Source of the DNA: Dictyostelium discoideum
Taxonomy: Eukaryota
NCBI GenBank assembly: GCA_000004695.1
Contig: CM000154.2
Span: 2,432,001-2,496,000, forward strand
Length of the DNA: 64,000 nucleotides
Reading direction: 5' to 3'
Below the pieces are notes generated by a model. It ran no database searches. It was not told the origin of the DNA and saw only the letters and a list, made by a program, of their open reading frames with translations. Positions within the stretch are counted from its first letter, which is position 1, and each line of letters opens with the position of its first letter. A program made the translations under genes and the position numbers. Shown one piece after another: positions 3,781 to 59,100 of the stretch.

Positions 3781-4010
3781 AAGAATGAAATTTTTTATTT
3801 TTTTATTTTTTTTTATATTTTTTTTTTTTTTATTTGAACATTTTAAAAAAAGAAAAAAACAAAAACAAATACTTTCACAAATAAAAATGGTATATATTTA
3901 ATTATTATAAAAATTGAATTTATTTATATTAATAAACTTAAATTTGTACTAATATATTTTAAAATATTTAGAATGATGAAGAATTTTTTAGCCTTTTAAA
4001 TCAATATCCA

Positions 4011-4407
4011 ATGAGAAGTGATAACCCCTCAACTACTACAGTATGTTTCAGTTTTTATTCATAGATATTCCAATATATATAAAATACAACAAAATTATTA
4101 ATCATTTGTGTATTTTCTTTTCTAAAAAAAAAAAAAAAAAAAACAGACACAAACAAGTAGTCAACCAAATTTGTTTTCAATTTTTAATAATATGATGGGT
4201 GGAATGAATAGAAATCAAAATCAAAATCAAAATCAAGATCAAGATCAAAATCAAAATCAAGATAAAAAGGATAAAGAAAGAGAATTTTTAGTAAAATTAA
4301 AACAATTTTTAGATAATAATGTAAACAATCAAGAAGAAGCAGATTTAATTTTTACCAATTTTAAAAAGAACCATTTAAAATATATTAAAGAAAATAATCT
4401 ACAATAA
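4011..4407 (+). CDS. Hypothetical small N/Q-rich protein. Tentative model join(4011..4040,4147..4407).
   Basis: ATG at 4011 is followed by 10 codons and a GTATGT donor at 4041. The only in-frame acceptor (AG 4145-4146) joins phase 0 to ORF 4171..4407. The track 'M' at 4171 is TTG. No recognizable domain. Confidence 0.35.
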
Positions 4408-4600
4408 ATGTAATATATATAAAATAACAAAATTAATGATACATATTCAACTTTATTTAAAAAAAGAAATAACAGAGGGGGTTTTAATTATAAAATACCA
4501 TTGTTAAAGATTTGGATTATATTTATTTTATTTTATTATTTTATTTTATTTTATTTATTTATTTATTATTACTACAATTGTATTATTATATTTTTTATTT

Positions 4601-5281
4601 TTAAAATTTTGGTTTAATTGGTAAAAATTTAGTATGTGAACCTTTAGCTACAACTAAACCACTATCTTCAGAACCTAAATAAATTGTTGTCTCTGTAAAT
4701 GCGATATTTCTTCCTTGTCTATACATTGATGAAACTATAAAAATTTTAGAACCAACAGGTGCTGCTGTTGAATATTTCGTACTAAGTTCAACTGAAACAC
4801 CTGGATTTATATCATCTAAATTTGTACTTATAATTGCAAATGTTGATATAACATCTATAAAAGTTGTCAGTAAGAACCCAATTAAAAGAAACAAACAAAC
4901 AAATAAATACAATAAAAAATATAATTAATAATACTTACCAATTAGAGTTGCTATACTGCCACCATGTAATGTACTTGAATTAAATAATAATTAAATAATA
5001 ATTAATATAAATAATATATTTTTTTTAATTGTTTTTATTTATTTATTTATTTGTTTATTTATTTATTTATTAAAATTAAAAAATTAGTATTACCCTAAAC
5101 CATTGCAATGTCTTTGCTCTACAACCATTGACATTACAATTCTACCCTTTTCATATGATTCGCAGGTACATATATCTAAAAATTGTGTATCAAATTGTTC
5201 TATTGATGACCATCTTTTAATTATTAATGAGAGTTTTTCACTCAATTCTTTATTTTTTGCTTTAATTATCATCTTTGACAT
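4601..5281 (-). CDS. Hotdog-fold thioesterase (PaaI/4HBT, acyl-CoA thioesterase 13-like). complement(join(4601..4844,4939..4973,5094..5281)).
   Basis: Splicing removes the spurious 'LFVCLFLLIGFLLTTFI' read-through and yields ...HCNGLG|TLHGGSIATLI|DVISTFAII..., the canonical HGG...ATL.D active-site segment. Donors are GTAATA and GTAAGT; acceptors are cAAG and tatAG. Phases are consistent: 2 then 1. Confidence 0.75.
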
Positions 5282-5373
5282 GTCTTGGTATTGTTTTTTT
5301 TAAAAATTAATTAATTTAGTTTCAAAAAATAAAAAATAAAAAAAAAAGGAAATGAAAAAAAAAATTAAAATAA

Positions 5374-5406
<33 letters not shown>

Positions 5407-5451
5407 AAAATAAATAAAATCGAAAATTTTCGTATAAAATGTTTATTAAAT

Positions 5452-5748
5452 TTAAATTAAAGAGGGAATATCCTCTTCATAATTTTTTTGAGCATTTTGA
5501 TCTTTTTCTATAATTATTATTTTATTATCTAAATTATTATTATTTTTAAACTTTTTGAAAAAATGTAATATATTTTTTTTAGATTTTTTATTTTGTTCAC
5601 TAATTATTATATTAACAGGATCAGAAATAATTTCTTCTTTATTTATTTGGGTGGTTGTTGTTGTTATTGTAGGATCATTTTTAAATAGATTTCCAGTTTT
5701 CTTCTTTTTTAATAAATTTGAATATGCTTTGGCTTCGTAAAATTCCAT
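5452..5748 (-). CDS. Hypothetical low-complexity K/N-rich protein (98 aa).
   Basis: ATG-initiated ORF (reverse complement of 'cat' at 5746-5748). No recognizable domain. Composition-driven, so weak. Confidence 0.3.
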   Translation of the reverse strand: MEFYEAKAYSNLLKKKKTGNLFKNDPTITTTTTQINKEEIISDPVNIIISEQNKKSKKNILHFFKKFKNNNNLDNKIIIIEKDQNAQKNYEEDIPSLI

Positions 5749-6034
5749 TTCTTTTTAATTATTATTTTATATATTTTTTATTTTTTAATTATTATTTTTA
5801 TTTTTATTTTTATTTTTATTTTTATTTTTATTTTTTAGTTTATTTATTTATTTATTTATTTATTTATTTTTTTATTCAATTTTTTTTTTAATTTATTGTT
5901 TAGAAAAAAAAATAAAAAATCAATTTATACTTTTTTTTTTCAACTTCGGCATTTTTTGAGAAGTGTTCTTTTTACCAAAACAACCAAAAAATTGGGAAAA
6001 ATCTCAAAAAAAAAAAAAAATAAAAAAAAATTGA

Positions 6035-46123: not shown

Positions 46124-47050
46124 TTAATAATTAAAAAATAAAAATGAAGGGTCACAATAAAAAACTAAACAACCATTTGGATACGAGGGTATTGAAGTTA
46201 AACTATAACCCTTTGGACAACTTGGGGCAATTGAAGAACTACATTTTTCTGGTGATATTGGAGCGCATTCAAAGAAAATATAACAATGATTAAAACTTCT
46301 GACATATGTTGCAATTAAACCAGATACACATCTAATTTCTTGAATTTTCTTTGGACAGTTATTTGAATTTGTTAAACTAATAAATAAATTATCAATATTA
46401 TATTCATATTTTGGTTTCCAATCTACATTTTTTATAATTTCATAATTTTCATCATAATATTCAGAGTTTGTTTCATTATTTGTTATGGTTACTGAATTTA
46501 CAGTAAATACGGAATTTCCAGTATTAATTAAATATTCCATCCAATTTGTTTGAATATTTTTAACATTTTTTGGATAATCTTGATATACAAGTGTTTTAAA
46601 TCTATTTTTTTCATCATTTTCATTTAATTGAGGTACTAATAAATTATGAGGATTACCCAAAGTATAAAATTGGGTATCTTTTGTTAAATTGAAAGTTTTA
46701 CCAGGCATTGGCATTAATCTATAGATATTGTGAGCTTCTGCAGTATCAACATCGTTTTGATAATCTCTATTTAAAATACCTCTAAAAACTATATGATAAG
46801 GTGGAGCATTTCTAATTTTATTTTCATTTACAACACCAATATCATCTTGTTGATTAATTTCTGAAACATAAATTTCCATCTCTTCTTTACCTGTATTTAA
46901 TTCCTTTACAAAATAACCACCACATCCAGGTTTTTCATAATTATCACATCTTCTTGTATCAGTTCTTGCTGCATAGTATTTAAAATCATCATTACATTTA
47001 ATTTTAAATATTAAATTAAATAAAATTAAAATAATAAATTTTATTTTCAT
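46124..47050 (-). CDS. Secreted Cys-containing hypothetical protein (308 aa).
   Basis: Single exon starting at ATG 47050. N-terminal signal peptide (MKIKFIILILFNLIFKIKC), multiple Cys, no recognizable domain. Confidence 0.55.
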   Translation of the reverse strand: MKIKFIILILFNLIFKIKCNDDFKYYAARTDTRRCDNYEKPGCGGYFVKELNTGKEEMEIYVSEINQQDDIGVVNENKIRNAPPYHIVFRGILNRDYQNDVDTAEAHNIYRLMPMPGKTFNLTKDTQFYTLGNPHNLLVPQLNENDEKNRFKTLVYQDYPKNVKNIQTNWMEYLINTGNSVFTVNSVTITNNETNSEYYDENYEIIKNVDWKPKYEYNIDNLFISLTNSNNCPKKIQEIRCVSGLIATYVRSFNHCYIFFECAPISPEKCSSSIAPSCPKGYSLTSIPSYPNGCLVFYCDPSFLFFNY

Positions 47051-47409: not shown

Positions 47410-50400
47410 TTATTTTGTAAATTGTTTAATTTTTTCTTGTAAGGAATTAATTTGTAGCGAGAGAGAAGGAGTTAAATTTAATTCTTTTTGTAATAATATA
47501 TCAGATAAACTGAAATTTTTTAAATTAAATTGAACAACAGCAGAATAAAAATTAGTTAAGGATAGTTTTGAATTAATGGTTGATGATTCCTCTAATAAAT
47601 TTAAAGCATTCTTCATATCATTTGTGAATTGTTTTAAATTATTATTTGTTAATTTACTTGAACCAATAATTAGAATACCTTTTAATAATTTTATAACTGG
47701 ATTATCTAAATAATTATTATTATTTAAATTTTCTTCTAATAATTTTAATGAATCTTTAAATTTCTTTTGAATACAATAAATTCTAATAATTTTCGATATT
47801 GTTGTTAAAATTAAACCATTATTATTATTATTATTATAATTATTGTTATTGGTTGTTTGTTGTTTTAATACTAAAAGTGATCTATTTAAACAAAGTAAAG
47901 AAGCATCTAATTGATCATTACTTTGATAAATATCACAAAGATTATGATAGATTGGAATTGAATTTGGTTCTAATTTTAATGCATCCTTTAAAATTGATAA
48001 TGCTTTAACTTTATCGCCTTGTTTTAAAAATTTCTTTGCTTCTAGTGATAATAATACAGATTTCTTTTCATTTGTATAATTTGTTTGTTTTTGATAATTT
48101 GAAATTAGTTTATCAAATTCAGCAATATCATCAGTGGTACCACTATCACCTTCACTTGTAATTGAAAGTGCTAATTTAAATTCAAGTTCAATTAAAATTT
48201 GTTGAAATTTAAATTCTTCTGTTATTGTTGTTGTTGTTGTTGTTGTTTTTGTTAACAAATATTGTACAACATTCCAACATGATTTAGTTGATTCCCAATC
48301 CTCTTTATTATCAGTATAAAGTGAACGCCAATAAAGTAAATTTTGAAGATGAACCCAAGGTTGAATATTATTATTAGTAGTTGATAATGGATTTGAATGA
48401 ATGATACGTTTGATTATAACAATGGCATTATCTAAACATTTTGTCCAAGGTGATTGTAAATCATAAAGATTTGCTTTTGCAATGATTTCCAATTCTTTAA
48501 TAGTTGGTGGTTGTAATACTTTGTGATCAGGACCAACACTTAATTGACCCATACCAGAATATTCTTGACTTTGTTTCTTATTTAATGAATGATTTAATAA
48601 TGATAATGGTAAATTACATGGATCATTATTTTCACTATTACTATTACTATTACTATTATTAATGAAATATTTCATTTCTAAATCAGCTAAACTTGTCCAA
48701 CCAATTGGCTCTAATGGGAATAAATGAATTAATTTTTGTAATTGTTTTCTGGCTTCTTCAATTTCATTATTTAATAAATGAATTTTTGATAATAATAAAT
48801 AGCTATTGGATTCCAATTGTTCAACTGTTGTTTGTAATTTAATTAAAACATTCTTTGCTAAATCATTTTTACCACAATCAATATAGATTGCAGCTAAATA
48901 ATACCATGATTTATAGAATCTTTTGTCAATTGTTATAATTGCTTCTAAAGTTTTAACAATTGTATCAATTTGTTGTTTTTTACCACTATTATTATTATTA
49001 TTACAAGTATATTGAATCTTTGCTAATGTAAATAATAAATTTTGTTTTCTAATGGTTGCAGTTTCTAATGATTTTGGAATTTGTGAAATTGATTTCTTCA
49101 TTGCATCAATTGATTCATTTAATTTATTTAATTTACAATAAATTAATGAAACCAATTCAAATAATATACTATTTGATAATGATGGTTCTGTTGTTTGAGT
49201 TGTTGTAATATATGGTTTAATTGTTTCTAATGCTTCATCAAATTTACCTAAATAATATTGAGTTCTTGATAAATTAATTTTAACATATTTTAATTTTTCA
49301 TCATTTGAAAATTCAATACCATCATTTAATGGTTTATCAGAGAATAATATTGAACCAATTGAACAACTTGAATTATTATTATTTAATGTAATCTTTGATT
49401 CATTATCATTATCATTATTTTTAATGATGGTTTTACTACTGTTGCTACTATTTGATAATAAATTTAAAGCAGATTTAAAATATTTTTCAGAATTTTCATA
49501 ATCATTTTGATGGCTGTAAACTAAAGCTAATGAATTATTTCCTTCAATTGAATTTGGATTTAATTCAACGTATTTGTATAATACTGAATAACTAGTTTCA
49601 CTATAACCTTCTAATAATGATGTTATACCATAACCTAATAACCCTTGACCAATTGGTGATGATTCTAATGCATTATCAATATAATTATAATCTTCTCTAC
49701 CTGTTGAATTATTATTATTATTATCATTATTATTATTATTATTAATATTTTTATTACTTGATTTAACTTCATTAATTAAACCTTGCAAAGACCAAGAAAT
49801 AACAGAATCAATATTATTATTTTTGGCAATCATTAAAGATTTATCAGATTGTTCAATGAAACCATATTCAAAATATAATAAAGTTAAATTATTATATGGT
49901 TCAGATTTTGAAGAATCTAATTGAATCGATCTAATTAGGGCATGTTGACTTTGGGCAGGGAATTTGTCCATTAAAACAACACCTAATAAATTCCATAACA
50001 TTGGGTCTGATGGTGATAAATTTAAAGCTTCAACAACACATTTAATTGATGATTTTAATAAATTCTCTGTTTCTTCTTTTGTAACTTTTAAATTTTTCTC
50101 TTGTTGTTGCTTTCCTTGTTGTTTTAAATAATTTTTAAAAATAATATATTGATTATAATAACCAATTGATAAATCTTGTAATGAATGGGAATTTGAATGA
50201 ATTCTAACACAATTAAAATATGCATTTGAAGATTGTTTTGATTTTTCAATTAAATAATCATAATTATTATTATTATTACTATTACTATTGTTATTATTAT
50301 TATTTGGTAAATTTAAGAAATAACTTGAAATATCAGCATATAATCTCCATAATGAATGAAAATTATTTTCTTTTTCTAATGCAATTTTAATTGAAGATTC

Positions 50401-53114
50401 AGCTAATTCGAGATGAATTAAAGATTGACGAAAATTTCTAAATTTATATTGTTCAATAGATAATTGTAATAAACATTCAGCTTTACCTTTTAATGAAGGA
50501 ACATTATTTTCCAATTGTTTTAAAACTCTATCATATTCATTGATAGCATCATCATAGAGACCTAAAGTTTTTGATAATGTTGCAATTTGAAAATTGATAT
50601 CAGTTGCAATACGATTTTCATTATCTAAAATCTCTTCTGCCTTTTTCAAAGATTTTAAAGCTGCAACATATTTGAATTGTCTACGATATGCTTCGGCCAA
50701 TGTACGCCAATAACTCTCATTCAAAGGCTCACCCTTAATTGCATTCAATAGGGATACTACGGAATTATGTATATCTTTATTATCCATTTGATAGATTGCA
50801 AGTCTATAGAATGCCCATGAACATTTTATAACATTAATTGGGAATCTTTTAATTTGTTTAGCTGATAAACAAAAATCGGTAATCTCTTTATACAATGACA
50901 TCACCAATGAAGTTTGACCACTCTCTGCATAGATTTCACCCAACTCAAATCCTGCTTCACCATTTAAAATATCCAATTGTAAACTTTTTTGATAACATTT
51001 CTTTGATCTCTCTTTTTGACCAATCATTTTATAAAGTGTACCTAATTTTGCAAACGTATCAGAATGATTTGAATTTAATTTTGCTGATTTTAAAAATTGT
51101 TGAATTATAAATGAACAATTATCATTATTATTATCATTATTATTATTATTTTCAATTTTATTTAATTCCATTAAAACTAAACCATAAACATAATAATTTA
51201 AATAATTATTAGCAGTTTCACCATTTAATTCAATTATTTCTTTTAAATTATCTTTACTTTTAATTAATGATTCTTTTGATTCTTTTAATAAAATATCAAT
51301 CCAAATTAAATAAATTTTTGATAATTCAATAATTTTCTTATTTTGATTATTATTTTGATTATTATTTTGATTATTATTAATAATTAATTGAAATAATTCT
51401 TTTGATTTTTTATAATCTTTAATTGAATAAAAATTTAATTTACTTTGTGAAAATGTTAAATAATTAAAATGAATTGGGAATTTATTAATTAATGATTCTA
51501 ATAATGATGATGCCAATTCAAAATTACAATTGAATGATAATGATTCAACTAAAATCAATTGAAGTTTAATGAAAATATTATTAAAATAATTGGCACCACC
51601 AACTGATCTTTGTTTTTGCTCATAGACAATCATTGACTTTTTAACTATATCTCTAACACGTTCATGATTTTCAACTTTTAAATACCATTTTGATAATGCT
51701 AAATAACCTAATAATGATTCGGTACTACCTGAATTTGAAAATCCTTTCTCTATTAATTGTTTACTTTGTTCACTATAATCTTTTAATTTAAAAACTTTAT
51801 AAAATCCTAACCCTATCCAACCTAATCCCCTATTTGCATATTTATTTGTTAAAATATTTGAAATTTCATTAATTTTTTCATATAATTCATTATTATTCTT
51901 TGATTCTTGATCATCATCTTCATCATCATCATCATCATTAAAATTAAATTCTTCTTCTAATAAATTTATTAAATTTTCTAATGAATAAATTGGTGTTGAT
52001 AACATTTCATTCATTCTTTCACAATTTTCATAAATTTCTTTATAAAGTTGTTTTTGTTTTTCTTCATCTTTATTCTCTTCATTACTATAAATTCTTCTTT
52101 TACCAATTAATATTTGAATGAAATGAGTATAAATTCTTATCATTTGTTCATTTGTTAAAATATTTAAATTTATTTTTGTTAATAATTCTTCATAAACTTT
52201 TAACTATATATATATATAGTTATAAAAAATAAATAAATTAATATTAATATTACTCTATATATATATATATTGGTTTTTAATTTTTTTGGAAAAAAAAAAA
52301 AAAAATCAAATACAAACATTAAAATTATTAATTAATGATTTATTTAATTCAAATTCAATTTTATCTCTTTCTTGTTTTTGTTCAGGTGTATGTTGAATTG
52401 CACCTAATACATGTAATTTTGAGTAATCTACAATTGGTATATTCTTCTCACGTAATTTTTCATCGATTTTAGTTTTTAAAGTGTTTAAATAGTATTGATA
52501 ATTTGCATCTTCAAATTTTTCTAATAATTTAATTCTATCTATTTTTGATGATTCACTATCATTTTCTCCATCATCACTACTTTTTTCATTTTCAAATAAA
52601 ATTGGTGAAATCAAATCAATTGTAGTTTTATAATCTTTTAAAAAGTAACTAATTTCAATTAATCTAAATACCAATTCTTTTTTTTTTTGTTTATCTGTTG
52701 TTAATGGAATTAATTCTTTTAATGTGTTTGATAATTTATCATTTTCATTTGTTTTATTATATAATTCTAGTAAACCCTAATTTATTTTATTTTATTTTAT
52801 TTTATTTTATTTTAAATTTTAATATTTATAAGTTTATTTTGTTTCAAAGAAAAAAGGAAAAAGAAAAAAAAAAAAATTTAACTAATTACCCTTAATGGAA
52901 CTGGTGAATTCTGTATTTTTAATGCAGCAATATATGATTTTTCAGCAGCAGCTAAATTATTTAAATTAAAATTTGAAACACCTAAAAAAAGATGAATCAT
53001 GAAATTTTGATCATCATATTGTACTATCTCATTACAATTTTCTAATGCTGTCTTATAATCTTTTTTATCAATAGCCTCCCTTGTCTCTTTTAATTTACTT
53101 TTAATATAGTCCAT
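47410..53114 (-). CDS. TPR-repeat protein, Ski3/TTC37-like (superkiller complex scaffold), ~1825 aa. complement(join(47410..52203,52318..52776,52890..53114)).
   Basis: Exon 1 (MDYIKSKLKETREAIDKKDYKTALENCNEIVQYDDQNFMIHLFLGVSNF...) is a TPR-like N-terminus typical of Ski3. It has a GTAATT donor after ...SPVPLR and acceptor ttAG 52778-52777. Exon 2 has an in-frame open extension upstream of the track ORF (its 'M' is TTG). The weak GTTTGT donor after ...LINNFN and acceptor tatAG 52205-52204 join to LKVYEELLTK...MIRIY... Exon 3 is ~4.8 kb of TPR/helical repeats. Confidence 0.65.
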
Positions 53115-53942: not shown

Positions 53943-55524
53943 ATGACTCAATTTATTGATAGAAATCAATCATATAAATTAAGAAACTCTACATTATTTC
54001 CACACGATATAACAATTGAAGATTGTCGTGAAGGTAAGCATTTTTTTTATTTTTTTTTATTTTTATTATTTGAAAACCTCAACATATTAATATTTTTCTT
54101 TTTTTTTTTTCTTTTATAGCCATAAAAGATGCAGCTGGATTCAGAGAAACAACAAAAAATGGATTAATTTGTTTTAATTATGATTTTTGTTTTAAAGATT
54201 CATTCCCAAATCCAGATATTGAACCAGATGATAAAAAAGCATTCCTTTATAAAGTAAGAAGAGAATGTAGAGGTTTAATTTTCAATGAAGCAACAAGTGA
54301 AATTGTTTGTAGAAAATTACATAAATTCTTTAACATAAATGAACAACAAGAAACAAAAGAAGTAAGTTTTATTTTATTTATTTTATTTATTTAAATAATA
54401 ATATTAATTTATTTTTTTTTTTTTTATTTTTTATATTTTTTATAATTTTTTTTTAAAAAAAAAAGGAATTAATTAAATTAGATGAGAATTTCATTGTATT
54501 AGAAAAATTAGATGGTTCATTAATTGCACCAATTTTAATTAATGGTAAAGCAGCATGGGGATCAAAGAGTGGTATTACAGATTTAACAATTAAAGTTGAA
54601 AAACATATTCAATTAAAATTAAAAGATAATAATATTAGATATGATGATTTCGCATTAGAATGGATGTTAAAAGGTTATACACCATTATTTGAATGGTGTT
54701 CAGAATCAAATCAAATCGTATTATATTATGCAATTGATAATTTAAATTTAATAGCCATGAGAAATATGAAAACTGGTGAATATTTAACTCATGATGAGAT
54801 GGTAAAGATTACAGCACCATTCAATGTACCAGTGGTAACATGTGTTGATTTAAAATCACATACACATTTCTCAAAGCTTTATAGTGAATTAAATGGTGCT
54901 GATAAGAGCATCACCACCACCTCTGAAGAATTTATAAATACAGGCGCATCAAAATTATTGAAAATTGTATTAGGCTTAGAGAATTGTGAAGGTTATATAT
55001 TAAAATTCGATTCAGGTAAGACCTATAAGATGAAGAGTAATTGGTATTTCGAGTACCATTCAATTGCACCAAATATTAAATATGTTTTAGAAAAGGATGT
55101 TTTCTATTTAATTTTAAATGATGGTTTAGGTGGTATCGATGATATTATTGCAAAGATCACTGCTTCAGGACCTGTACCACAAAGATATTACCAAATTCAA
55201 GAGTTTGGTAAAGAATTATTACAAAAACTTGAAGATTTATCTATTAGAGTCATTCAATTCATTAAAGAATCAAAATCACAAGGAAAATTAAGAAAACATA
55301 TCTCCTCTGATAATTCGGTTTCAAATGCTTTCAAAAACTTTGTTTTTAGATTTTATGATTCAGTTGAAGCAAATGATAAAGTTACAAAACATATTGGTGA
55401 TGTTTCAAAACATATAATGGAAAAATTAAAACTTCTTTGCACTAATTCTTCTAAATTAGAAGAATGTAGAATTATTCTTGGTGGTATTAAATTTACTGAA
55501 GATAAGCCAAAATTATCTGATTAA
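53943..55524 (+). CDS. ATP-dependent RNA ligase, T4 Rnl-like nucleotidyltransferase. join(53943..54033,54120..54361,54466..55524).
   Basis: GTAAGC donor at 54034 and acceptor AG 54118-54119. GTAAGT donor at 54362 and acceptor AG 54464-54465. Exon 3 begins ELIKLDENFIVLEKLDGSLIAPIL, i.e. covalent-nucleotidyltransferase motif I (K-x-D-G-S-L, as in T4 Rnl1 KEDGSL). RGLIF and ILKFDSGKTYKMK further downstream are compatible with motifs III-V. The first track 'M' (53931) is TTG; the real ATG is at 53943. Confidence 0.6.
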
Positions 55525-55551
55525 TTAAAAAAAAAAATAAATAAAAATAAT

Positions 55552-55628
<77 letters not shown>

Positions 55629-55903: not shown

Positions 55904-56857
55904 ATGAGTAACATCGATGAAAGTAAAAAAAAAGATAAAAATATTAATAATGAAGAAACTTCATTAAATCAAATAACATCATCACTTTCAATGATTTCTT
56001 TAACTCCATCAATACCTCCATCAACACCACCATCAACACCAAATAATAACAATAAAAATAAAACATTTAATAACAGTGGTAGTGCAATTAAAAATAATTT
56101 TAATAATAATGGATCAATTATAGGAGAAAGAGCAGTTCAATATTTTGGATATTTAGTATTATCACAAGGTCATATATGGAGAGCCACGACATCAAATGAT
56201 ATTGGTATTGATGGTCAAATTGAATTTGTTAATAATTTTTCAAGAAAAGGTAGTAAAGCTATAATTTGTGGAGTTCAATTAAAAGCAACGGTTGTAGATA
56301 AAAATGCTTCAATTAATATTGAATCTGTAAATTATTGGATTAAATATCCATTACCAGTTATAGTAGTTCAAATTTATTTTAAACAACCAATTAATTCATT
56401 ACCAACTTGTTTATTCTTAACAAAAGAACAAGTTCAAAGTTATATAAATTCAACAACTTTAAATACACCTAATAAAAATTCATCTTCATCATCTTCAACT
56501 TTTTCTTATTTTTCACCTGTTCAATCACCATCACCATCACCATCATCATCATCGAATTCCTTAATGACAATGGTTATTGAGTCAAGAGTATTTGATAAAA
56601 ACAAAGCAAAGGATTTCTCATGTGATGCAGTTCAAGAATATTGTATTGAATATATGAGAAATAATTATGTAAATTTTATTGATAATAGATTTCAAGATTA
56701 TTTAAAAATTCAAGAATATTCAAAAATGAAAGCTGATCAAATTTGGAAAGATTTAGTTCATAAATTTTTAAAACTAAAACCAACTTATAATTTAAAAGAA
56801 GTTATAGTTTTTAATTTAAATAATATTAATAACAATAATAACAATAATAATGATGAA

Positions 56858-56921
<64 letters not shown>

Positions 56922-57496
56922 GTTTTAATGATGATGATTATGAAAATGATGACAATGAAACTTTTTTAATAAATATTCAAAATTTATTCGAATTCCCATT
57001 TTCAATAATTCAAGATAATCATAGAGATTATTTAAAAGAACAATTAATTGAATTTGGATATGACCATAATGTATCACTAAGAAATATTTGTGATCAAATT
57101 TACCATTTATATAACAATAATAATAATAATAATAATAATAATGAATTTATTAATTTATCAAAATGGTTTAGTTATTTATATTGTATTTTAAATATTGATC
57201 CAATTAAATCAATTGAAAATGATATTTTAGAGATTAATTTAAATTCATCAATTAAAAAAGATATTATTTACATAGAGATTTTAATTTTAGAAATTTGTGA
57301 TTTCATATTACCAAATTATTATAAAGAAATTATTACAACTCAAACAACTGCAAAATTAATAATTATTAAAAATATTATAAATCTTTCAAAAACTAGTAGT
57401 AGAGGTGGTGGTGGTACTGATGGCGGTAGTGACGGTGGTGTTAATGAATTATTAAATAATTCCATAAATTTATTAAAAAAACAAATAAATAAATAA
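55904..57496 (+). CDS. N-rich hypothetical protein (530 aa) with a PD-(D/E)xK-like (DUF4365-like) core.
   Basis: Single exon. The region GERAVQYFGYLVLSQGHIWRATTSNDIGIDGQIEFVNN...GSKAIICGVQLKAT has the D...(D/E)xK arrangement and the 'NDxGIDGxIE...VQxK' pattern of restriction-endonuclease-fold DUF4365 proteins. It is flanked by poly-N/poly-S low complexity. Confidence 0.55.
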
Positions 57497-57573: not shown

Positions 57574-59100
57574 TTAAATTCTATTATTATCATGTAATAA
57601 TCTTAATAATGAATCAGTTACTGAATTATCTCTTGATTCTTTAATTGAATTTGATATACCATAACCAAGTATTATAGGTTTACTATTATTATTATTATTA
57701 TTATGATTTTTATTATTGATTGAATTTGAATCATTATTCTCAACAGTTAAAACATGTAAATATAATGAACTATCAGTACCTCTATTAATTTCTTTAACTA
57801 AATGAATTTGACCAGGTCTTTTTGAATGTTGATTTAAAACGGTTTGTAATCTACCAATATGAGAGAACCCAACACAATCATGTAAAATTAATGTTGAAAA
57901 CCAAGCTGGTACATTATTTTTAGAGGTTTGATATACATCAGCTCCTAATTGTTTTTTATAATATTCCCAAATTGAACTTGGATTTTTATAAAGATGTAAA
58001 TCTTGATTTTCAATTGGTGCTTGATATGATTGATTTTTCATCATTAAATTTGATGATGATGTTGATGTTGATGTTGTTGATGGATCTGATTTATTATTTT
58101 CATTTTCTTTATATATATTTTGTTGTTGTTGTTGATTTTGATTTTGATTTTGATTTTGATTTTGATTTTGATTTTGATTTTGATTTTCTATAGTATTAAT
58201 TTTTATTTTTTTTTTTAATAAAAATTTTTTATAATTCGCAAATAAATGATCAAATTCATATTGTGATAATGAATCTAAATATTCAGTGAATAAAGGTAAA
58301 ATTTTGTCTTCAATAGCTGATTCACCTTGATCTAGATAAACTGAACCAATGAATGACATGAATGTGACGTAATATAATTGTTCATATTTTTGATTTGGTA
58401 ATTTATTTGATAACTTTTTGATGTATCCTTGAAGATTTAAATATTGAAAAGTATTGGCAATGACAACATGGGATATAAAGAATGAGTTTATAGGTATTAC
58501 ATAGTTATTGGTGACATTTGGGTATCGTTTAAATAGATATTTACAAACTACTAATGGAAATATCTTTGATGCTTCTGCGAAATATTTACCAGTGATTAAT
58601 GTTTTATTATCTTTTGAAAAGGTTACCGCTGTTGAAAATGAATTGGAAAGTAATTGATTATCGTTGAATTTCAATCCATTGAATGTATTCTCTATCTTTT
58701 TAATTAAAATATTTTTACTTATAACATTTGGTACAATTTCTTCGGAAAATTTATTCTTACAAAATTGACTATTACCAATATGTGTTGAATCTAATAAATT
58801 TTCATTTTCATCTTTAAAACTATATGATTCATTATTATTTTCATTATTATTATTATTATTATATTTATTATTATTATTTAAATTATTATTATTATTATCA
58901 TTATCATTATTATTTAAATTATTATTATCACTATCATTTATTTTAAATTTTATAAAATTTGGATTATTTTTGGAAAAATATAATTTATTTGAAATTGTAA
59001 AATTTAAATTTAATTTATTATAACTATTTAAATTTGAAATAATATTGGTTATAAATTTTTTATTGGTATTTACACATAATCTATTTGTTAAAGATATCAT
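57574..59100 (-). CDS. RNase III-like domain plus dsRBD protein (mitochondrial ribosomal protein L44/Mrpl3-like), 508 aa.
   Basis: Single exon starting at ATG 59100. N-terminal N-rich leader, a central degenerate RNase III-like helical domain (LLSNSFSTAV...FMSFIGSVYLDQGES) and a C-terminal dsRBD-like segment (PGQIHLVKEINRGTDSSLYLHVLTV...PIILGYGISNSIKESRDNSVTDSLLRLL). Contains a (QN)8 tract. Confidence 0.55.
   Translation of the reverse strand: MISLTNRLCVNTNKKFITNIISNLNSYNKLNLNFTISNKLYFSKNNPNFIKFKINDSDNNNLNNNDNDNNNNNLNNNNKYNNNNNNENNNESYSFKDENENLLDSTHIGNSQFCKNKFSEEIVPNVISKNILIKKIENTFNGLKFNDNQLLSNSFSTAVTFSKDNKTLITGKYFAEASKIFPLVVCKYLFKRYPNVTNNYVIPINSFFISHVVIANTFQYLNLQGYIKKLSNKLPNQKYEQLYYVTFMSFIGSVYLDQGESAIEDKILPLFTEYLDSLSQYEFDHLFANYKKFLLKKKIKINTIENQNQNQNQNQNQNQNQNQQQQQNIYKENENNKSDPSTTSTSTSSSNLMMKNQSYQAPIENQDLHLYKNPSSIWEYYKKQLGADVYQTSKNNVPAWFSTLILHDCVGFSHIGRLQTVLNQHSKRPGQIHLVKEINRGTDSSLYLHVLTVENNDSNSINNKNHNNNNNNSKPIILGYGISNSIKESRDNSVTDSLLRLLHDNNRI

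Follow-up and report, generated by a model that had tools for sequence, protein, structure and literature searches.

Structure of the DDB_G0289211 locus

The window, i.e., the whole 64-kb stretch of Dictyostelium discoideum DNA that was analyzed, has a GC content of 22% and contains long homopolymer and (AAT)n tracts, as is typical of Dictyostelium. Joining of three exons of the forward strand (53943 to 54033, 54120 to 54361, and 54466 to 55524) afforded a 1,392-nt open frame coding for 463 amino acids followed by a stop codon. The neighbors of this gene in the window encode a large TPR protein, a DUF4365 protein, and a weak RNase III-like protein. The exons and introns of the gene are as follows.

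53943 to 54033, + strand: exon 1 (91 nt), from Met1 to the first base of codon 31
54034 to 54119, + strand: intron 1 (86 nt, phase 1, GTAAGC..ATAG), with GT..AG ends, at the same position in D. firmibasis
54120 to 54361, + strand: exon 2 (242 nt), from the rest of codon 31 to codon 111, coding for most of the Rnl1-type N-terminal subdomain (R81, K99, and F101)
54362 to 54465, + strand: intron 2 (104 nt, phase 0, GTAAGT..AAAG), with GT..AG ends, after codon 111, as in D. firmibasis and D. purpureum
54466 to 55524, + strand: exon 3, codons 112 to 463 and TAA, coding for the core nucleotidyltransferase and the C-terminal helical domain

An exact-sequence look-up revealed that the spliced product is identical, residue for residue, to XP_636340.1/EAL62839.1 of D. 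discoideum AX4 (DDB_G0289211), indicating that the gene model of an earlier note on this DNA is the reference model. The splice junctions proposed in that note (54033/54120 and 54361/54466) were exact, since the deposited protein, the alignments of orthologs, and the introns of D. firmibasis all agreed with them. Both junctions were spanned by an unbroken alignment in nine dictyostelid orthologs (...EDCRE|AIK... and ...ETKE|ELIKL...), and the D. firmibasis gene contains both introns at identical positions, with a first exon of 91 nt and a second exon of 242 nt. The D. purpureum gene has a single intron, located after codon 111, and its intron 1 site is read through (...EDCREAIKG...). The ortholog from Polysphondylium violaceum is intronless and displays the same sequence, ...EDCREAIKG..., at the intron 1 site. 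D. citrinum, D. firmibasis, and D. purpureum share the start codon and the N terminus MTQFIDRNQ. The GC content was 26 to 27% for the exons, 13% for intron 1, and 3% for intron 2. Together, these results confirmed that DDB_G0289211 is a real, intact, three-exon gene of D. discoideum.

The XP_636340.1 record is entitled "hypothetical protein DDB_G0289211," and the corresponding UniProt entry, Q54HU9, is entitled "T4 RNA ligase 1-like N-terminal domain-containing protein." The identification at the domain level is therefore already public through Q54HU9, and the value of the gene is that of a lead rather than of a discovery. A literature search on DDB_G0289211, DDB_G0286041, Q54HU9, and Q54MC4 did not retrieve any paper. 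Added here are the assignment to the T4 type rather than to the Trl1 type, the catalytic nature proposed for the N terminus, the prediction of a C domain, and the indications of an old origin, a duplication, and selective constraint of the gene in Amoebozoa.

Assignment to the T4 RNA ligase 1 family

Comparison with profile libraries identified Pfam RNA_lig_T4_1 (PF09511) as the best profile for the product of DDB_G0289211 (residues 79 to 308; 143.4 bits for a cutoff of 28.3), with an E value of 1.3e-41 that excludes a chance match. The Pfam RNA_ligase profile (PF09414) gave a weak, subthreshold match (E = 3.7e-4), and neither a DNA ligase nor a capping enzyme was the best match. The NCBIfam profile of the T4 RnlA family (TIGR02308) aligned residues 79 to 431 with positions 51 to 364 of its 373 positions (E = 7e-28). 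The score of 97.8 bits is far below the equivalog cutoff of 242.25, so that the protein qualifies as a family member but its functional equivalence with T4 Rnl1 is not established. Among all PDB sequences, the sole matches were the T4 Rnl1 entries 2c5u, 5tt6, and 9do4 (E of ~4e-18), and chains of Trl1, DNA ligases, or capping enzymes were not matched even at E values of up to 1. These analyses bear out the earlier proposal that the gene encodes an RNA ligase.

The 463-residue protein contains no further Pfam domain: OB, BRCT, Trl1 kinase, and CPD domains were all absent. The gene ends at position 55524 and does not run into the next one. The ligase was rightly described as a stand-alone enzyme lacking an OB or BRCT context, and the results support its assignment to the T4 RNA ligase 1 (Rnl1) clade.

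Active site

The earlier note had also pointed to motif I (VLEKLDGSLI) and to downstream motifs, and motifs III (FEW), IV (EGYIL), and V (KMKSNWY) were indeed found. The active-site features are located as follows.

54496 to 54525, + strand: motif I, VLEKLDGSLI (residues 122 to 131), in which D127 and G128 correspond to D101 and G102 of T4 Rnl1
54505 to 54507, + strand: K125, the predicted AMP-accepting lysine, corresponding to T4 K99
54682 to 54702, + strand: motif III region, PLFEWCS, in which E187 corresponds to T4 E159
54988 to 55002, + strand: motif IV, EGYIL, in which E286 and G287 correspond to T4 E227 and G228
55021 to 55047, + strand: motif V, TYKMKSNWY, in which K299, K301, and Y305 correspond to T4 K240, K242, and Y246

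The essentiality of T4 Rnl1 residues other than Arg54 and Lys75 was reportedly established by Wang et al. (in JBC in 2003 and in RNA in 2006). Pairwise alignment revealed that all 18 T4 Rnl1 positions that were checked are identical in the Dictyostelium protein. Ahead of and within motif I, T4 residues Y37, R54, K75, F77, K99, D101, G102, S103, and L104 are matched by Y51, R81, K99, F101, K125, D127, G128, S129, and L130, respectively. Further downstream, T4 residues K119, E159, E227, G228, K240, K242, Y246, and D272/D273 are matched by K145, E187, E286, G287, K299, K301, Y305, and D336/D337, respectively. Across 95 homologs, 14 of the 18 columns were invariant, including those of K125, D127, G128, E187, E286, G287, K299, K301, and Y305, and two additional columns were at least 90% conserved, the equivalents of F77 and L104 being the only checked columns that vary more.

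N-terminal subdomain

As anticipated, exons 1 and 2 account for the first 111 codons, i.e., for the residues located ahead of exon 3. The additional suggestion that this N-terminal region of ~110 residues is a targeting or regulatory region did not hold, since the region aligns with the N-terminal subdomain of T4 Rnl1, carries the equivalents of ATP contacts, and was modeled with pLDDT values of >90. The subdomain is located as follows.

53997 to 54486, + strand (both introns within): Rnl1-type N-terminal subdomain, residues 19 to 118, aligned with T4 Rnl1 residues ~4 to 92

Residues 19 to 118 matched the N termini of phage, bacterial, and viral homologs, most matches beginning at residue 19, and were modeled as a β-sheet and a helix. 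In this subdomain, R81, K99, and F101 correspond to the T4 ATP contacts Arg54, Lys75, and Phe77. In T4 Rnl1, Arg54 and Lys75 contact the γ-phosphate of ATP and are essential (PMC6379707). The extension beyond the Rnl1 subdomain comprises only ~18 residues. These observations argue for an N terminus that belongs to the catalytic unit, as an Rnl1 N-terminal subdomain with predicted ATP contacts. A targeting peptide was also considered at the N terminus and rejected, based on the alignment with the Rnl1 subdomain and on an argument from charge: the first 30 residues include 4 basic and 5 acidic residues, for a net charge of −1, and do not resemble a mitochondrial presequence.

C-terminal domain and fold comparison

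What defines an RNA ligase clade is the domain attached to the nucleotidyltransferase (NTase) core (PMC6379707). In the predicted structure of the Dictyostelium protein, and by transitive alignment, the core is followed by a helical domain homologous to T4 Rnl1 residues ~255 to 374.

55060 to 55521, + strand: all-helical C-terminal domain, residues 310 to 463, counterpart of the T4 Rnl1 C domain, including D336 and D337 (T4 D272 and D273)

The sequence evidence for this domain is weak, and its homology thus relies on the structure model, the span of the TIGR02308 alignment, and the transitive homologs. The Pfam T4_Rnl1_C profile did not match the product of DDB_G0289211 at E values of up to 1, and alignment of the amoebozoan C domains with the single T4 C-domain sequence by hhalign gave an E value of 0.013 and a probability of 3%. 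The T4_Rnl1_C domain is carried by 62 of the 95 full-length homologs that align end to end with the Dictyostelium protein.

In the fold comparison, T4 Rnl1 aligned over 344 of 367 residues. This near-complete superposition necessarily takes in the ~120-residue T4 C domain and therefore places the protein in the Rnl1 clade proper. The figures in the same comparison were 15.2 for archaeal Rnl3, 14.5 for Naegleria Rnl5, 13.1 for T4 Rnl2, at most 10 for DNA ligases, and at most 8 for capping enzymes. No OB-fold was found after the NTase core, and the best match was to DNA ligases or capping enzymes neither by profile nor by fold. The model thus predicts the whole T4 Rnl1 architecture, C domain included.

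The Dictyostelium protein displays 24 to 25% identity with T4 Rnl1 (gp63; PDB 2C5U, 5TT6, and 9DO4) and is ~90 residues longer. It differs from the phage enzyme by the N-terminal extension of ~18 residues, an insertion of ~13 residues in the N-terminal subdomain, a low-complexity insertion of ~32 residues before motif IV, and a larger and more divergent C domain, in which Pfam T4_Rnl1_C is not detected. In addition, the Dictyostelium gene is nuclear and contains introns, and no Pnkp or anticodon nuclease gene is adjacent to it.

Comparison with Trl1 and predicted catalytic competence

Eukaryotic tRNA ligases of the Trl1 type (Rnl6) are found in fungi, plants, and kinetoplastids and include the "sealing-only" enzymes of Mucorales and the RNL of Branchiostoma. 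They display a KxNG motif I, a YRxxR 2'-PO4 site, and a C domain that differs from the T4 type. Trl1 reads the 2'-PO4 via N150 of KxNG, H227, R334, and R337 (PMC10946435). The gene could encode a sealing-only ligase for tRNA splicing and the UPR, joining 3'-OH,2'-PO4 and 5'-PO4 ends after separate healing, as in Mucorales and Branchiostoma. We consider this reading improbable, since none of the three marks of Trl1 was found in the Dictyostelium protein. Its motif I reads KLDG rather than KxNG, and no RxxR was detected downstream of motif V, the only RxxR (RECR, residue 78) belonging to the N-terminal subdomain. The superposition on the Trl1 ligase domain (Trl1-LIG; 6n0t) extended over 265 residues only, which is consistent with the adenylyltransferase domain alone, versus the 344 of 367 residues obtained with T4 Rnl1. 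The sequence search did not detect any Trl1 chain, as mentioned above, and Dictyostelium is reported to possess RtcB. Finally, classical Trl1 is fused to polynucleotide kinase and cyclic phosphodiesterase domains, which is not the case for the Dictyostelium protein. The earlier preference for the Rnl family over the Trl1 type was thus well founded, based on the KLDG motif I and the lack of both the YRxxR sequence and the kinase and CPD domains.

Phage homologs are annotated as "RNA ligase and tail fiber attachment catalyst," and the Dictyostelium protein could by analogy be a catalytically idle protein with a moonlighting function, e.g., a role in assembly comparable to that of T4 gp63 in tail-fiber attachment, or the product of a decaying gene. 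This appears very unlikely: all the catalytic residues that were checked are intact and are conserved across Dictyostelia and the 95 homologs, the open frame is intact, the introns are conserved, and the dN/dS ratio is low (see below). Amoebae, moreover, have no tail fibers.

Evolution and genomic setting

Orthologs were found in every dictyostelid group sampled, namely, in D. citrinum, D. firmibasis, D. purpureum, Polysphondylium, Acytostelium, Tieghemostelium, and Heterostelium, and additional homologs were found in Balamuthia, Physarum, and Acanthamoeba. Comparison with D. firmibasis gave a dN/dS ratio of 0.14 (dN of 0.064 and dS of 0.46), indicating that the gene is constrained and under purifying selection. 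A paralog group of dictyostelids includes DDB_G0286041 (443 residues; 38% identity). In a simple neighbor-joining tree, the amoebozoan sequences and four unidentified metagenome proteins formed one clade apart from the bacterial and phage sequences, and the two dictyostelid paralog groups were sisters with a bootstrap of 97%, a value that pertains to this pair, the all-Amoebozoa node holding the four metagenome sequences carrying no support figure. The gene dates far back in Amoebozoa, and its duplication took place at the base of Dictyostelia. The earlier statement that such enzymes are sporadic in eukaryotes needs a qualifier, since within Amoebozoa the gene is widespread and, according to the neighbor-joining tree, looks vertically inherited.

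The nearest non-amoebozoan relatives are the phage and prophage Rnl1 ligases of Alphaproteobacteria, Legionella, and other bacteria, as well as those of environmental viral contigs, in fair agreement with the "viral or bacterial flavour" noted previously. Exemplified by gp252 of Sinorhizobium phage phiM19, these relatives display 28 to 38% identity and align over residues 19 to 454 of the Dictyostelium protein, i.e., over nearly its full length. Most of them carry T4_Rnl1_C, and they lack the insertions and introns of Dictyostelium. At the loci of several phage and bacterial relatives, the ligase gene lies beside HAD_PNKP phosphatase and AAA_33 kinase genes, in phage-like surroundings. In a Legionella MAG, HAD_PNKP phosphatase and AAA_33 kinase open reading frames are located by the ligase (locus L006), and an AAA_33 kinase was found at locus L018. 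At the locus assigned as Sinorhizobium (L024), a fused HAD_PNKP-AAA_33 open reading frame stops at the start codon of the ligase. Judging from their gene content, these Pnkp-type cassettes correspond to the classical heal-and-seal arrangement of T4.

The identity of these closest outside relatives would fit a recent horizontal gain of the Dictyostelium gene from a phage or a bacterium, and assembly contamination may also be envisaged. Both were rejected, and we assign them a very small probability. The gene contains two spliceosomal introns and has a host-like base composition, the synteny of the upstream gene for the large TPR protein extends to D. purpureum and D. firmibasis, orthologs occur throughout Dictyostelia under a dN/dS ratio of 0.14, and the homologs from Physarum, Balamuthia, and Acanthamoeba belong to the same clade. 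Synteny, the spread of the orthologs, and the amoebozoan clade therefore exclude contamination and recent transfer. The gene may, in the distant past, have passed between phages or bacteria and an ancestral amoebozoan. Practically negligible is the probability of another covalent nucleotidyltransferase (DNA ligase, mRNA capping enzyme, Rnl2, Rnl3, or Rnl5), a reading that would account for the shared core NTase fold and for the weak PF09414 match but that fails the profile and fold comparisons.

A functional link to the neighboring genes was considered and discarded. The downstream gene encoding the DUF4365 protein adjoins the ligase gene in D. discoideum and D. firmibasis but not in D. purpureum or P. 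violaceum, so that this adjacency is not conserved. No kinase or phosphatase gene adjoins the ligase gene in the window, and the 64 kb contain no tRNA gene.

Taken jointly, the data are probably best explained by a functional nuclear gene encoding an enzyme with Rnl1-type chemistry and a predicted RNA break-sealing activity, the gene being an ancient amoebozoan one that was duplicated in Dictyostelia.

Proposed chemistry and role

The conserved residues and the predicted fold lead us to infer, with high confidence, that the protein follows the three-step pathway of ATP-dependent ligases via a K125-AMP intermediate. In the first step, K125 would attack ATP to form the ligase-AMP adduct, R81, K99, and F101 of the N-terminal subdomain holding the γ-phosphate and the adenine of ATP and E187, E286, and D127 holding the metals. 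The AMP would then be passed to the 5'-phosphate end of the RNA, and attack by the 3'-OH (2'-OH) end would seal the break. The combination of a KxDG motif I, a T4-type helical C domain, and the lack of the 2'-phosphate site of Trl1 implies that plain 3'-OH/5'-PO4 breaks should be sealed. We therefore propose, with moderate confidence, that the substrates are 3'-OH/5'-PO4 breaks in stem-loop RNAs, for instance in the anticodon loops of tRNAs, and that the enzyme performs the "seal" of a heal-and-seal process. The end-healing enzymes would be encoded elsewhere in the genome. Dd-Clp1 and Dd-Nol9 are listed as RNA 5'-kinases of D. discoideum (PMC10598085). Dictyostelium is also stated to possess RtcB (PMC13247085), and the halves of spliced tRNAs are probably ligated by that enzyme.

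The ligase may have a more specific role. In T4 Rnl1, the C domain gives specificity for tRNA anticodon loops (PMC6379707). Amoebozoa may conceivably have kept, and Dictyostelia duplicated, a phage-style ligase for the repair of tRNA breaks introduced by anticodon nucleases or other ribotoxins, a proposal that we regard as tentative and rather doubtful. If it were true, the ribotoxins could be those of the bacterial food, of intracellular pathogens, Legionella among them, or of competitors, and the ligase would act beside RtcB and separate healing enzymes. The system would then be an example of eukaryotic RNA-repair immunity based on an Rnl1 whose C domain is specific for tRNA.

T4 Rnl1 is the textbook example of a tRNA-repair ligase in phage-host conflict. 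The presence of two constrained full-length Rnl1 copies per Dictyostelium genome, besides the reported RtcB and Rnl5 homolog, points to a broad RNA-repair toolkit in some free-living eukaryotes, and the social amoeba offers a tractable model for asking what cellular Rnl1 ligases repair. Shuman and colleagues described seven Rnl1-family genes, which are uncharacterized, in Naegleria gruberi, as well as the Rnl5 homolog of Dictyostelium. Like Dictyostelium, N. gruberi (Rnl1 paralogs; NgrRnl, an Rnl5) is a free-living amoeboid protist with several phage-like ATP-dependent RNA ligases. The activity predicted for the Dictyostelium protein also resembles that of human RLIG1 (C12orf29), a eukaryotic ATP-dependent 5'-PO4/3'-OH RNA ligase. 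RLIG1 ligates tRNAs in vitro, and a possible role in tRNA ligation was proposed by the authors (PMC11494293).

Low-complexity loop

The core of the Dictyostelium protein is interrupted by a surface loop, which is located as follows.

54886 to 54942, + strand: low-complexity surface loop ELNGADKSITTTSEEFINT, inserted between motifs IIIa and IV and specific to Dictyostelium

The loop was modeled with lower pLDDT values (66 to 77) and is missing from T4 Rnl1 and from the bacterial homologs. Strains of D. discoideum differ in the length and composition of the loop (T, S, and N runs), the proteins comprising 461 to 475 residues.

Genomic context of prokaryotic homologues of the ligase

ORFs encoding a Pnkp-type HAD phosphatase and an AAA_33 kinase were found to adjoin homologues of the Dictyostelium discoideum RNA ligase (DDB_G0289211) in loci L006 (Legionella MAG), L018 (another bacterial or prophage locus), and L024 (assigned to Sinorhizobium). 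Inspection by eye revealed dCMP deaminase-like ORFs in both L006 and L018 and a ThyX-like ORF in L018. On the basis of these surroundings, the "bacterial" copies of the ligase in the three loci look like prophage RNA-repair cassettes. In a Candidatus Saccharibacteria MAG contig (L061, positions 4001 to 5774), the homologue was present as two pieces in different frames, which matched residues 19 to 222 and 275 to 454 of the query and were separated by ~685 nt, and this gene appears to be interrupted by an insertion, a mobile element, an intron, or a frameshift.

Fusions of the Rnl1-type ligase were also detected among the protein homologues. In P0072 and P0098 (701 residues; putatively metagenome or MAG derived), the ligase is fused to a PF08843 domain, a family of AbiEii-type nucleotidyltransferase toxins. 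The eukprot entry P0009, in which a fragment of a Ras/Roc GTPase is joined to the ligase, is probably a merged gene model.

Neighbours of the ligase gene and its variable loop

The following features of the window were considered:

46124-47050, minus strand, 308-residue ORF matching DUF6748 (PF20533, E = 2.5e-7)
47410-52143 plus upstream exons to ~53114, minus strand, very large TPR-repeat protein gene
54886-54942, low-complexity loop of the ligase (residues ~252 to 270), between motifs IIIa and IV
55904-57496, plus strand, gene for a 530-residue Asn-rich protein, next downstream of the ligase
57574-59100, minus strand, 508-residue ORF

DUF4365, a mostly prokaryotic, nuclease-like domain, spans residues 77 to 156 of the 530-residue protein (PF14280, E = 1e-10). 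Adjacency of the ligase and DUF4365 genes was conserved in D. firmibasis (75% identity) and was not found in D. purpureum or P. violaceum. Judging from weak, sub-threshold Ribonuclease III matches (PF00636, E = 0.002; PF14622, E = 0.01), the 508-residue ORF may encode a degenerate RNase III-like protein. Upstream, the divergent TPR-repeat gene, which encodes at least 1,577 residues within one ORF, has syntenic equivalents in D. purpureum (1,775 residues) and D. firmibasis (1,815 residues). The N terminus of the DUF6748 ORF is hydrophobic and signal peptide-like.

The loop differs in length and composition among D. discoideum isolates, with variants including [36 protein letters not shown] as well as [22 protein letters not shown]. 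The ligase of these isolates accordingly ranges from 461 to 475 residues. The low-pLDDT stretch of the predicted structure coincides with this loop. An (AAT)n microsatellite of ~25 units (~55551-55625) lies directly 3' of the ligase stop codon.
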